Program-made: the position numbers and the translations under genes
The notes under the pieces: model-generated
Seen by the model: the letters and a program-made list of their open reading frames with translations, nothing else
Database searches by the model: none
Told to the model about the DNA's origin: nothing
Origin: a virus
Virus record (IMG/VR): IMGVR_UViG_3300045988_123909
Length of the DNA: 45,869 nt
Reading direction: 5' to 3' (one strand)
Shown here: piece after piece, positions 11,337 to 36,300 of the stretch
Numbering within the stretch: the first letter of the stretch is position 1
How the letters are laid out: each line of letters opens with the position of its first letter

Positions 11337-11418
11337 ATTTTTTAAAATTTTTGTTTGAAATCATCATTATGTGCGACATTTTTTGTATATTAGCACCGTG
11401 AAAATTATTAACACGCTG

Positions 11419-11470
11419 CAAATATACAACATTTCAGTGATACCACCAAACATTTCACTGATTATTTTTG
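11419..11470. promoter_or_regulatory. Divergent promoter/operator region of the lysis-lysogeny switch
   Basis: Minus-strand promoter is TTTG (11450-11447) - 20 nt - TATATTTG (11426-11419). Plus-strand -7 box is TATTTTTG (11463-11470). Two 13-nt repeats 21 nt apart: acatttcagtgat (11428-11440) and acatttcactgat (11449-11461). Confidence 0.55.
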
Positions 11471-32922: not shown

Positions 32923-32950
32923 AGCCCCGATGCGCTGCTGCACCGGGGCT
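32923..32950 (-). terminator. Intrinsic terminator, type A hairpin (copy 2)
   Basis: Identical to 32129-32156. About 20 nt downstream of the stop of the 133-aa gene. Confidence 0.7.
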
Positions 32951-32969: not shown

Positions 32970-33371
32970 CTATGCTAACTGCAAAGAGCTAATGCGTTGT
33001 CCAATCTCCTGGACGGCACGATTGAAAATATCTTTCTGCTCGGAATTGAGCGTATAAACATGACCACGAACCTCTGAGCCATTGAGACGCTGAGAGAGCC
33101 ATGCAGCGCTTTTACCGAAATATTTCTGTGCGATGTATCGAAGTGGAAGCAACTTGTAATCTGCCTCTGCAAGCTGCTCACGCAAAGTGGCAACCTCCAG
33201 CTTCAGGTTTGCGACTCTATCTACAACCACCTCACTAATATATTTCTTATCCTCCTCCGTAGCATTTGCGCTGAGATAGCGATGAATCTCGTCTCTGCGC
33301 TCTTTGCTCTTGGCATCCTGCTTACTAGCCAATGCCATATACTCTGCCATTAATTCTTTGATATTATCCAT
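32970..33371 (-). CDS. DUF5053-like protein with N-terminal coiled-coil extension (133 aa)
   Basis: C-terminal YFGKSAAWLSQRLNGSEVRGHVYTLNSEQKDIFNRAVQEIGQRI resembles the Bacteroidota DUF5053 pattern. Paralogue at 34747..34998. Confidence 0.6.
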   Translation of the reverse strand: MDNIKELMAEYMALASKQDAKSKERRDEIHRYLSANATEEDKKYISEVVVDRVANLKLEVATLREQLAEADYKLLPLRYIAQKYFGKSAAWLSQRLNGSEVRGHVYTLNSEQKDIFNRAVQEIGQRISSLQLA

Positions 33372-33724: not shown

Positions 33725-33732
33725 TATCTTTG
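33725..33732 (+). promoter_or_regulatory. -7 promoter box TATCTTTG for the 195-aa membrane protein gene (copy 1)
   Basis: Part of an approximately 75-bp block that is nearly identical to 35170-35245. Confidence 0.55.
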
Positions 33733-33772: not shown

Positions 33773-34360
33773 ATGGAAAAGATAATAAGTAATAAGGCGG
33801 CATCCTTTGCCAGCATGGAGCTTGCCAGATATGCGCTGGAACGGGCAGACAAGAGAGCGAGCAGCATACTGGAGCAGTATCGCAAGTCAACCGACCGCAA
33901 CTATACGCTGGCAGGTTTCATCATGACGGTGTTCATGGCACTCACGGCTTTCCTTGCCACGGAAAAGATGACCATGGTGCTGATAGCAATCACTCTCCCT
34001 TTATGGGTAGGAACCGGAACGGCGCTGCTTATCCTATTCTGTAAGGTGATGTGGGTACACGACTTTATGGCGCTGGGAGATGATGCTGCCACGATGCTGA
34101 GAGATGACCTGGTAGACGTGGCCATGAACAAAGGATTGCAGGATGACGATAAGGCAAACGATGAATACCTGCATCATCTCGTAATATCATCCATCAGGCG
34201 TACTCATAACGACACAGAGTATAACCGCGCCTGCCTTAACAGAAGGAACCGATACGTAAAACGAGCGATGACCGCAATCATCGCCTCGGTAATAGTGAGT
34301 GCAACGACTACGGTCATCCTGCTGGCCCTATCTTTTCTTGGGGTTATTCCCATGACTTGA
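33773..34360 (+). CDS. 3-TM membrane protein (195 aa), paralogue 1; possible SLATT-like / superinfection-exclusion-type effector
   Basis: N-terminal helix, two adjacent TMs, a ~70-aa soluble helical region, then a C-terminal TM. One of only four plus-strand genes. Confidence 0.65.
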   Translation: MEKIISNKAASFASMELARYALERADKRASSILEQYRKSTDRNYTLAGFIMTVFMALTAFLATEKMTMVLIAITLPLWVGTGTALLILFCKVMWVHDFMALGDDAATMLRDDLVDVAMNKGLQDDDKANDEYLHHLVISSIRRTHNDTEYNRACLNRRNRYVKRAMTAIIASVIVSATTTVILLALSFLGVIPMT

Positions 34361-34424
34361 AGTGTCCGGATAACTGTTCGGATCTTCTGGCCAACCATCC
34401 TCATTGTAGTTTGGTTTCATAATC

Positions 34425-34550
34425 AATAAAAAGGGCCCGTGCATCCGGAGAGCAGTCCTTCAGCACGAGCCACACAGCTGTATTTCTTTTCACTTGTTAT
34501 GTACAAACTCTGCTCAATCTGCACACAACCTTAGTTTAATGTCATCATTA
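34425..34550 (-). ncRNA. Candidate ~125-nt sRNA or leader: canonical promoter to intrinsic terminator (copy 1)
   Basis: Minus strand has TTTG (34588-34585) - 20 nt - TATCTTTG (34564-34557). No ORF longer than 5 codons. The hairpin 34471-34434 is followed by CTTTTTATT. The unit is convergent with the 195-aa gene. Confidence 0.35.
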
Positions 34551-34624
34551 CGCCTGCAAAGATAGCACTTTTCTCTGGAACCATCAAACATTTTACTGAT
34601 TATTTTCAGAAAACGGCAAGAAAA

Positions 34625-34651
34625 AGCCCCGATGCATCTCGCACCGGGGCT
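34625..34651 (-). terminator. Intrinsic terminator, type B hairpin (copy 1)
   Basis: agccccgatgcatctcgcaccggggct, followed on the minus strand by TTTTTCTT. Downstream of the 83-aa DUF5053-like gene. Confidence 0.65.
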
Positions 34652-34746
34652 GAGTTGAGTTATTGAACATGTTAGCTATGCTAACTGCAATGCGCCACAA
34701 GGCTATGGCGACTTCTGTCTTATGGGGAACGATGGCCCCAGCCTCA

Positions 34747-35071: not shown

Positions 35072-35079
35072 CAAAGATA
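35072..35079 (-). promoter_or_regulatory. -7 promoter box (TATCTTTG on minus) for the 83-aa gene
   Basis: Plus strand reads ggccgcaaagata. The downstream box CGGCCACCCGAGCATTACAC partly matches the shared box. Confidence 0.45.
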
Positions 35080-35184
35080 CTACTATTTTTCGTAGTAGCC
35101 AAATATTTAATACGAAAAATCGTAGTATTAACTATGTTTAAGTTTTCTGTATGTGAAAAGGTAGAAAATGAGCGGGAAAAAGTG

Positions 35185-35192
35185 TATCTTTG
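35185..35192 (+). promoter_or_regulatory. -7 promoter box TATCTTTG for the 195-aa membrane protein gene (copy 2)
   Basis: Same conserved block as 33725-33732. Confidence 0.55.
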
Positions 35193-35230: not shown

Positions 35231-35818
35231 ATGGAAAAGATAATAACCGGCAAGGTTCGCAAGAACTTGAACGAGCACACAGCCCGCATCATCCTGGAGC
35301 GCTCAGACAGATTGGCAAGCAGCACGCTTGAGCAGCTCCGCAAATCTACCGATCGCGCCTACACCATGACAGGGTTCCTGCTCACGGTGTTCATCGCCCT
35401 CACGGCATTCGTATTCTCCAGCCCGTCTTTATGGCAGCTCTCTACTGCTGTAGTTCTATGGTCAGGCATCTTTATTGCGCTATACATCATGGTAAACCAG
35501 ATTCTGTGGGTTCACCCTTTCAGGCATACAGGCAACGAGCCCAGGAACATGATACAGGAGGAGAACATCGACAGGCTTCTGAAGAATGGACATAACCAGG
35601 AAGAGATGAACGCCATATACTCCGTCAACACCCTGCTCGATGCCATCAGCTATAACCAGGAAATCATCGACCGCAACAGGAGTATTCTTGCCAACCGCTG
35701 CGACCATATAGAAAAAGCGATGACGGTGATCAAGTGTACTGTTATTGTCGCCACCATCATCACCGTCATCTCGTTTCTAGCCTCTGCTCTTGGGATGTAT
35801 CACGGTTCCGCCATTTGA
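35231..35818 (+). CDS. 3-TM membrane protein (195 aa), paralogue 2
   Basis: Same length and topology as 33773..34360. The first 60 aa are 36/60 identical by hand alignment; the rest is much more diverged, though a WVH motif is retained. Confidence 0.65.
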   Translation: MEKIITGKVRKNLNEHTARIILERSDRLASSTLEQLRKSTDRAYTMTGFLLTVFIALTAFVFSSPSLWQLSTAVVLWSGIFIALYIMVNQILWVHPFRHTGNEPRNMIQEENIDRLLKNGHNQEEMNAIYSVNTLLDAISYNQEIIDRNRSILANRCDHIEKAMTVIKCTVIVATIITVISFLASALGMYHGSAI

Positions 35819-35879
35819 GCGGTCGTCTCCACCTCCACGCTGAGGAATCCAGTCGTCATCGTCTGTTGGTTTCATAATC

Positions 35880-36005
35880 ATAAAAAAGGGCTCGTGCATC
35901 CGGAGAGCAGTCCTTCAGCACGAGCCACACAGCTGTATTTCTTTTCACTTGTTATGTACAAACTCTGCTCAATCTGCACACAACCTTAGTTCAATGTCAT
36001 CATTA
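35880..36005 (-). ncRNA. Candidate ~125-nt sRNA or leader (copy 2)
   Basis: TTTG (36043-36040) - 20 nt - TATCTTTG (36019-36012). Perfect 9-bp hairpin 35926-35918 / 35897-35889, followed by CTTTTTTAT on the minus strand. Confidence 0.35.
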
Positions 36006-36080
36006 CGCCTGCAAAGATAGTACTTTTCTCTGAAACCATCAAACATTTTGCTGATTATTTTCAGAAAACAGCAAGAAAAG

Positions 36081-36105
36081 GCCCCGATGCATCTCGCACC
36101 GGGGC
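36081..36105 (-). terminator. Intrinsic terminator, type B hairpin (copy 2); probably ends the lysis operon
   Basis: gccccgatgcatctcgcaccggggc, followed on the minus strand by CTTTTCTT. Confidence 0.6.
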
Positions 36106-36300
36106 TTCCTGATAATTTTGATAACTTTATAAACTTGGAAAACCGTACTCTACAACAAGAATGATAGATTTCCATATGAGAATGAGAACACACGCCTGTG
36201 CAATGTTATAAGATCATATTACTATAACTAATAATCATGAGTATAAAAAAGATACATCTAATATAAAATTCAGCCAAACTATACCTATAAACACTTAAAC

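Follow-up and report, generated by a model that had tools for sequence, protein, structure and literature searches.

We describe a structured RNA of about 130 nucleotides (nt) that stands between a promoter and an intrinsic terminator, immediately ahead of exchangeable accessory genes, in phages of Segatella (Prevotella) copri. It occurs twice in a 45,869-nt stretch of viral DNA (IMG/VR record IMGVR_UViG_3300045988_123909; "the window" hereafter means this whole stretch at its full length). Judged by comparison with relatives, it is an undescribed structured RNA family whose secondary structure is well supported, and it precedes three forms of downstream gene, which we call cargo. The reading that we favour, and hold tentatively, is of a portable promoter-leader-terminator cassette of temperate S. 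copri phages that would mostly yield a stable small RNA and would be read through conditionally into its cargo.

Two copies of the cassette

Two tandem modules, offset by 1455 nt, lie within 33.7-36.1 kb of the window. Each has, on the plus strand, a -7 box (TATCTTTG) and the gene for a 195-amino-acid (aa) protein with three predicted transmembrane (TM) helices, and a minus-strand unit converges on that gene. The minus-strand unit runs from a terminator, T0, through a promoter and roughly 130 nt without a conserved open reading frame (ORF) to a hairpin with a U-run, and then into a short ORF that begins MKP. Their features are as follows.

34625-34651, minus: T0 terminator of copy 1, a 12-bp GC-rich hairpin with a U-run, at the 5' edge of the repeated cassette (terminator scan)
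34557-34588, minus: predicted promoter of RNA copy 1, with -33 TTTG (34588-34585), a 20-nt spacer and -7 TATCTTTG (34564-34557)
34423-34552, minus: structured RNA copy 1, about 125-130 nt, with ends predicted from the promoter and the U-run; covariance-model score 153 bits
34496-34529, minus: hairpin SL2 of copy 1, a 14-bp stem with a 6-nt apical loop, GAGCAG, at 34515-34510
34434-34471, minus: terminator hairpin SL3 of copy 1, 9 bp, a 4x4 UGAA/GGAU internal loop, 3 bp and the loop CUGCUC at 34455-34450
34421-34433, minus: terminator U-run and A/U-rich spacer before the small ORF
34328-34420, minus: small acidic protein gene of copy 1, 30 aa, starting MKP; the final 33 nt lie antisense to the end of the three-TM coding sequence
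33773-34360, plus: three-TM gene, allelic type 1, 195 aa, with a -7 box at 33725-33732
36081-36105, minus: T0 terminator of copy 2, which follows the lysis cassette
36012-36043, minus: predicted promoter of RNA copy 2, on the basis of the promoter-pattern count
35878-36007, minus: structured RNA copy 2, with SL2 at 35984-35951 and SL3 at 35926-35889; covariance-model score 153.9 bits
35970-35965 and 35910-35905, minus: apical loops of SL2 and SL3 in copy 2
35777-35875, minus: small acidic protein gene of copy 2, 32 aa
35231-35818, plus: three-TM gene, allelic type 2, 195 aa, with a -7 box at 35185-35192

A sequence-only reading of this DNA had placed a promoter, a noncoding stretch and a terminator at 34328-34590 and had noted a second copy. 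That unit is real. The canonical Bacteroidota promoter at 34588-34557 (TTTG, 20 nt, TATCTTTG) is present exactly as described, the 9-bp hairpin at 34471-34434 is followed by C-U5-A-UU, and the second copy does have the better stem, with U-A in place of the U-G of copy 1. The conserved block is larger than that account had it, however, extending from 34651 to 34398 and including the upstream terminator at 34651-34625. As a repeat, it comprises 254 noncoding nt that are 94% identical between the copies (35853-36106 in copy 2), while the 195-aa membrane proteins that flank it are only 37% identical to each other. The same reading had found no ORF longer than five codons in the noncoding stretch; this holds for ATG starts 5' of the hairpin, but GTG-initiated frames of 30-33 aa cross the RNA. 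Those frames are broken by indels among the RNA types introduced below, in which the RNA is 130-145 nt long.

Support for the promoters comes from several directions. The window has 15 instances of TTTG-N18-22-TAnnTTTG, both RNA promoters among them, where shuffles lead one to expect 0.62, and the -7 box is kept in every RNA type, the divergent E type included. Both boxes fit the S. copri motifs that differential RNA sequencing (dRNA-seq) has placed at -7 and -33 (bioRxiv 10.1101/2024.04.05.588293).

The junctions around these promoters recur. Three near-identical terminator hairpins (32923-32950, 34625-34651 and 36081-36105), with the same TTTTCTGAA-type spacer, each precede a promoter, and the terminator-promoter junction is itself, by its sequence, a repeated building block of the accessory region. 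Far from the modules, a minus-strand promoter at 11416-11468 has an extended upstream element in common with the two RNA promoters (81% over 53 nt). The small gene behind it looks like a Cro/CI-type helix-turn-helix regulator, and this promoter and the two RNA promoters may be co-regulated.

Fold and covariation of the RNA

Relatives were gathered with an exact scan for the hairpin-core pattern, which gave 70 viral contigs, and with a search anchored on the membrane protein, which gave 75 more loci; looser patterns and covariance models added divergent forms of the RNA. The resulting set comes mostly from one phage lineage and one large human-gut dataset, and its counts are not independent. 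It holds about 60 distinct RNA sequences, which fall into types A, A2, B, C, D and E and differ strongly in their 5' halves. The sequence-only reading had named conservation of the promoter-terminator unit in relatives, and covariation across homologous phages, as checks on its proposal. Both are borne out: the promoter boxes, SL3 and the U-run are kept across RNA types, and the covariation is heavy.

The window RNA is predicted to fold at -44.7 kcal/mol (z = -3.9), and none of 200 shuffles folded as well. SL3 of copy 1 contributes a stability of -20.2 kcal/mol, within the range of -17 to -21 kcal/mol across relatives, and the run of 5-8 U that follows it is retained in nearly all of them. Compensatory double changes are found in 11 of the 14 pairs of SL2, and in the divergent E type the two helices of SL3 (9-10 bp and 3 bp) are retained through compensatory changes. 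Across the alignment as a whole (A5, fitted to a two-hairpin model that does not contain the kissing helix described below), paired cells amount to 94%, and compensatory changes are seen at 21 of the 32 pairs; if the partners are slid by 1-3 columns, pairing falls to 32-50%. Many of the pairs are G-U; the plus strand would have A-C at these positions, and it is therefore the minus strand that folds. The UGAA/GGAU internal loop of SL3 is invariant, although in type E the helices on its two sides have both changed; it plausibly forms tandem G-A pairs and serves as a site for binding or for a tertiary contact.

When the RNA is folded in truncated form, the 3' half of SL2 pairs with the 5' half of SL3 in types B-D but not in type A. 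This pairing is thus not conserved, and a classical attenuator of the 1:2 / 2:3 / 3:4 kind was rejected. No internal tandem repeat was found in the RNA, which is a single unit. A search of the whole window with Rfam release 15 at gathering thresholds gave no match. At E-values up to 10 in 34300-34700, there were weak matches on T0 or the promoter region, bar one that clips the first ~24 nt of the RNA (11 bits, E 7.9).

A kissing loop at the terminator

SL2 and SL3 each have a 6-nt apical loop; the two loop sequences are exact reverse complements and change together among the RNA types.

Type A: SL2 GAGCAG, SL3 CUGCUC
Type B: SL2 GGGCAU, SL3 AUGCCC
Types C and D: SL2 GGGCAG, SL3 CUGCCC
Type E: SL2 GCGCAU, SL3 AUGCGC

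Complementarity is perfect in 53 of 59 distinct RNAs. Three of the remainder have no SL2, and three have only 4 or 5 of the 6 loop pairs; we read these last as recombinants between types. The kissing helix is 97-100% paired and includes two covarying pairs, and the loop-loop duplexes have predicted energies of -7.8 to -10.1 kcal/mol. Because the bases flanking the loops are not complementary, this would be a loop-loop contact and not a hidden ordinary helix, and the covarying loops indicate an intramolecular kissing loop. In sequence SL2 looks like an old inverted copy of SL3. Such an origin would account for how the complementarity arose, but not for its maintenance. The earlier account of the RNA was right about its promoter and hairpin, but the main features escaped it: the 14-bp stem with its covariation, the loop-loop contact and the internal loop that never varies.

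These features bear on the reading under which the RNA has no function at all, and the DNA is simply a promoter beside a bidirectional terminator, recently duplicated together with its gene and conserved through young age or gene conversion. The near identity of the two window copies is what such a history would produce, most relatives come from one phage lineage, and type A has an A-rich tract before SL3, with which the hairpin could terminate plus-strand transcripts too. Yet the compensatory changes extend across diverged types, G-U pairs are allowed on one strand only, loop-loop complementarity has been kept through four states, and the plus-strand U-tract is absent in type B. Moreover, the coding parts that the flanks enclose are down to 37% identity, and the flanks are therefore under constraint and not merely young. 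We find an RNA without function barely credible, already disfavoured as it is by the covariation.

A small acidic protein behind the terminator

Both MKP ORFs noted in the sequence-only reading are present (34420-34328 and 35875-35777). Their start lies 13 nt beyond the SL3 hairpin, and no promoter motif of their own was seen in the gap between hairpin and start; in most copies, an in-frame ATG or TTG lies two codons 5' of the MKP start. Within the part of the ORF that does not overlap the membrane gene, third-codon positions make up 13 of the 18 variable sites, 11 of the 18 are synonymous against 19% expected (P about 1e-4), and the common polymorphisms are all synonymous. Modules whose membrane protein is 36-41% identical have an ORF of 29-33 aa at the same place, which starts M-K/R and has an acidic run and then an invariant W (alignment A6). 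From this pattern of substitution, we conclude that the MKP ORF is a real small-protein gene under protein-level purifying selection.

Cargo exchange and distribution

The RNA is found in 86 distinct contexts. Most of these (71) have the small ORF and the convergent TM gene, seven have a gene resembling PDC-S02, two have an 80-aa fusion, and six are deletions. In all three cargo forms the start codon lies 13-24 nt past the hairpin, and in none of the three was a second promoter motif seen in the gap between hairpin and cargo. From these contexts the RNA is evidently not specific to the three-TM gene.

The PDC-S02-like gene encodes 338-340 aa and lies on the same strand as the RNA, directly behind the cassette, kissing loop included, with no convergent partner (7/86 contexts). 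It is carried by several phage contigs with type D RNA (L164, L174, L175, L177, L178 and L183) and by all E-type copies (L163, L180, L191, L199 and L207), and it fills the same slot, upstream of a DUF2335 gene. Matches to the PADLOC profile PDC-S02 (E = 1.9e-15 and 2.1e-18) cover only the N-terminal ~125 of 324 profile positions, and PDC-S02 is a candidate defence system in PADLOC, not a validated one. The protein had no sequence match in Pfam, NCBIfam or PDB. The third cargo form is seen in L166 and L170 (L170:3107-3346, minus), in which the small acidic ORF is lengthened to 80 aa with a hydrophobic C-terminal segment and faces a 68-aa ORF with one TM helix in place of the ~195-aa gene.

The RNA and the membrane gene can each be found alone. 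Through deletions, the RNA is retained without the membrane gene in L035, L179, L049, L062, L069 and L078. Conversely, natural deletions leave intact three-TM genes that lack the RNA in L087 and L160, and that lack both the RNA and the start of the small ORF in L114 and L127. L049 and L062 had been considered as a different hairpin context; this was rejected, as their deletions fuse the hairpin to the 5' end of the three-TM gene.

The order of promoter, noncoding RNA, intrinsic terminator and protein gene is also that of type III toxin-antitoxin (TA) systems such as ToxIN, CptIN and TenpIN, in which case the RNA would inactivate the product of the downstream gene by binding to it. These systems are linked to phage defence, and one of the cargoes here resembles a candidate anti-phage defence protein (PDC-S02, E 1e-15 to 1e-18). 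Their antitoxin RNAs, however, are tandem direct repeats processed by the toxin, whereas the RNA here is a single unit with no tandem repeat array. One and the same RNA core precedes interchangeable genes whose products are unrelated, an acidic peptide of 30 aa in one case and a protein of 340 aa in the other, and specific binding of both is unlikely. In every profile search run, the downstream proteins were unrelated to ToxN-type endoribonucleases, and cargo survives without the RNA in L087 and L160. We give a type III-like system very little credence.

Covariance-model scans found the RNA in 3 of 121 genomes of the genus Segatella and in 1 of 151 genomes of the family, and the exact-pattern scan found it in 1 of 301 family genomes; the two family matches are the same prophage carrier. 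It was not found in other genera of the family among the genomes sampled, and a pattern scan of metagenomes returned E-type relatives and chance matches only. By this distribution, it is a lineage-restricted, phage-borne RNA family that is common in human-gut viral contigs.

The convergent membrane gene

At loci anchored on the membrane gene, the RNA lies about 60 nt past the stop codon in 70 of 75. The 195-aa protein combines its three predicted TM helices with a soluble part of ~70 aa. Searches of both three-TM proteins against Pfam, PHROGs, PADLOC and NCBIfam gave sub-threshold noise only. An AlphaFold model is all-helical, with a predicted local distance difference test (pLDDT) score of 80, and a Foldseek search of this model against PDB gave generic long-helix matches only. 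A weak lead to PycTM, the Pycsar membrane effector domain, arose for the protein encoded at 33773-34360: a language-model search for look-alikes in the ESM Atlas put it close to clusters in which 15% of members have that domain (score 0.93, rank 8). The lead was confirmed by neither profile nor fold search.

The sequence-only reading likened the convergence of the two transcription units to type I TA pairs of prophages (txpA/RatA, bsrG/SR4). In such a system the RNA, or its read-through product, would act in cis as an antisense RNA, pairing with the 3' end of the three-TM mRNA and controlling its stability or translation, with the membrane protein as the toxin. The geometry itself holds. A terminator scan found no convincing plus-strand terminator on the way from the three-TM stop codon to the hairpin, the small ORF and the three-TM coding sequence have 33 nt in common, and overlap of the two transcripts at their 3' ends would seem unavoidable; the convergent layout is present in 71 of 86 contexts. 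As in these pairs and in the RNA I/RNA II pair of pAD1 par, the hairpin is common to both strands and could serve both, and complementary terminator loops could make the first contact, since a plus-strand transcript crossing the hairpin would bear a loop complementary to that of SL3. In pAD1 par, terminator-loop contacts start pairing.

The type I reading is nonetheless poorly supported. RNA types are uncoupled from the allelic types of the three-TM gene, so that the RNA is not partner-specific; the same RNA, with its kissing loop, is also found ahead of same-strand cargo where no gene converges on it, and intact three-TM genes survive without it (L087 and L160, or L114 and L127, which lack the small-ORF start as well). 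Type I toxins are usually small hydrophobic peptides of under about 60 aa, whereas the convergent gene here encodes 195 aa and resembles no known toxin family, and the convergent unit encodes a conserved protein of its own. Complementarity of the RNA to the translation start regions of the three-TM genes was not better than in shuffles. We therefore regard a type I-like system as improbable. Antisense interplay with the three-TM mRNA in the window is likely a side consequence and not the core function; the overlap geometry is still relevant, because read-through would run antisense into the membrane gene.

Genomic surroundings

The modules sit among the genes of what is, by its gene content, a temperate phage. 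Just upstream, the minus strand has genes for a holin (PF05105) and a glucosaminidase (PF01832), and DUF5053 and DUF2335 genes flank the modules. The cassette occupies the slot after these lysis genes and before the DUF2335 membrane gene, and does so in L174 as in the window. The terminase and portal genes have distant similarity to those of Porphyromonas prophages, and the genome records with the hairpin are S. copri; strain OF03-3 (contig QSCI01000001) has a copy of the prophage. Three further features belong to this neighbourhood.

32970-33371, minus: DUF5053 paralogue, 133 aa
34747-34998, minus: DUF5053 paralogue, 83 aa, ended by T0 of copy 1
35077-35128: inverted repeat of 21 nt, 90% complementary, with a 10-nt gap

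Several of the inspected loci, though not every one, have a DUF5053 gene ahead of the cassette (RNA copy 1 of the window, L049, L087 and L160), and DUF5053 proteins are candidate regulators of the adjacent promoters or of the RNA. The inverted repeat overlaps the promoter of the 83-aa DUF5053 gene (-7 box 35078-35071) and by its position is a candidate operator; L049 has a similar palindrome at the equivalent place.

Discussion

The sequences show the promoter motifs, the RNA structure with its covariation, the strand that folds, that the small ORF is coding and that cargo is exchanged, and these findings place a conserved structured RNA between a promoter and an ORF, with an intrinsic terminator just before the start codon. 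In the portable cassette that we tentatively favour, the canonical Bacteroidota promoter would constitutively start an RNA of ~130 nt. This would fold, in order, into a single-stranded 5' part of ~25 nt, the 14-bp SL2, a linker of ~35 nt and the GC-rich SL3, which would be the intrinsic terminator, and the loops of SL2 and SL3 would kiss. For most transcripts SL3 would be the end, and these would build up as a stable small RNA with a compact fold. The others would read through on some signal or factor, giving the mRNA of the gene 13-24 nt further on, whose start codon would lie in an A/U-rich stretch right after the U-run. The cargo in the window would be the acidic protein of 30-32 aa, with a read-through transcript antisense to the 3' end of the mRNA of the 195-aa gene, and in other phages it would be the PDC-S02-like candidate defence protein of 338-340 aa. 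The trigger might be a ligand, modification of the polymerase, or an RNA-binding protein, from host or phage, that recognises the invariant loop.

The sequence-only reading had offered as its own alternative that the hairpin is an attenuator controlling a small protein. In outline this agrees with selection on the ORF, with its position after the terminator and with the presence of the same cassette before a second kind of gene, but no alternative antiterminator pairing conserved across RNA types was found, and this counts against the portable gate. So do several other points. No conserved leader peptide was found: types A and B have an ATG mini-ORF of 3-5 codons at the 5' end, and the other types have unrelated ones or none. 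In L087 and L160 the small ORF stands directly behind a different terminator, with no RNA cassette, and cargo can thus exist without this leader. Independent covariation events are few, amounting to four loop states and one divergent SL3 lineage. Termination, read-through, the regulation of both and any effect on the three-TM gene are steps that we infer. Finally, the 5' part and the linker are conserved within RNA types and differ between them, which a trans-acting seed could fit equally well.

A purely trans-acting small RNA (sRNA) is a serious rival, although in our estimation an unlikely one. It would be a stand-alone phage product of ~130 nt that pairs through its 5' part or linker with host or phage mRNAs, or that sequesters an RNA-binding protein through the internal loop, and the position of the cargo would be incidental. 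A strong promoter and a strong terminator of its own would suit such an RNA, as would the compact kissing-locked fold, which is typical of stable RNAs. The RNA is also far more conserved than the neighbouring proteins (94% versus 37%), and orphan copies persist after deletion of the cargo in L035, L179, L049 and L062. Against this, any seed would be borne by the single-stranded parts, and nothing in the RNA is less conserved from type to type than these; neighbouring translation start regions have no complementarity to the RNA, and the cargo start codon always comes right after the U-run, with no promoter motif of its own seen.

The portable leader cassette has its closest parallels in attenuators, in the expression platforms of riboswitches and in the pR'-6S RNA-tR' unit of lambda, which is read through by Q. 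Each of these likewise has a constitutive-looking promoter, a short noncoding transcript to an intrinsic terminator and a gene immediately downstream. Conserved tertiary contacts within a leader are also familiar from riboswitch aptamers, as in the loop-loop contacts of the purine and lysine classes. Unlike attenuators and riboswitches, however, the cassette showed no antiterminator helix and no ligand-type gene association; its tertiary contact uses the terminator's own apical loop, and its cargo consists of interchangeable phage accessory genes in place of a metabolic or late operon. Nor was a Q-, N- or put-like component of lambda-type antitermination identified. In position and behaviour the cassette is reminiscent of phage morons such as lambda bor and lom, which also lie after holin and endolysin genes with their own promoter and with terminators on both sides, vary in presence and cargo among close relatives, and encode membrane or defence-like products. 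We know of no morons that have a common conserved structured leader RNA between promoter and gene, as the cassette here does. Overall, the cassette resembles a portable RNA gate in front of phage accessory genes more than it does an antisense RNA specific to a toxin.

One further step, about which we are more doubtful, would make the cassette a phage-borne sensor, acting through a riboswitch-like mechanism or through factor-dependent antitermination. The kissing-locked terminator might open on a cellular or infection signal, or when a phage protein binds at UGAA/GGAU, and so switch on interchangeable exclusion or defence cargo in Segatella lysogens, be it the small acidic protein together with its three-TM partner or the PDC-S02-like protein.

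Segatella copri is among the most abundant bacteria of the human gut, and its RNA and phage biology has barely been charted. The RNA described here is on widespread prophages, wired before swappable accessory genes of which one is defence-like, and it has an unusual tertiary feature, a kissing contact between the terminator's own apical loop and a hairpin upstream of it. The cassette also adds a conserved 30-aa protein family that gene callers have overlooked, and provides a natural, compact promoter-RNA-terminator part for Bacteroidota genetics. If the RNA does gate its cargo, it would offer a handle on how prophages silence potentially costly exclusion or defence genes and on when these are released. 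Should it prove to be a sensor, it would found a new class of RNA switches that serve the accessory genes of prophages, in a bacterium that is among the commonest of the human gut.

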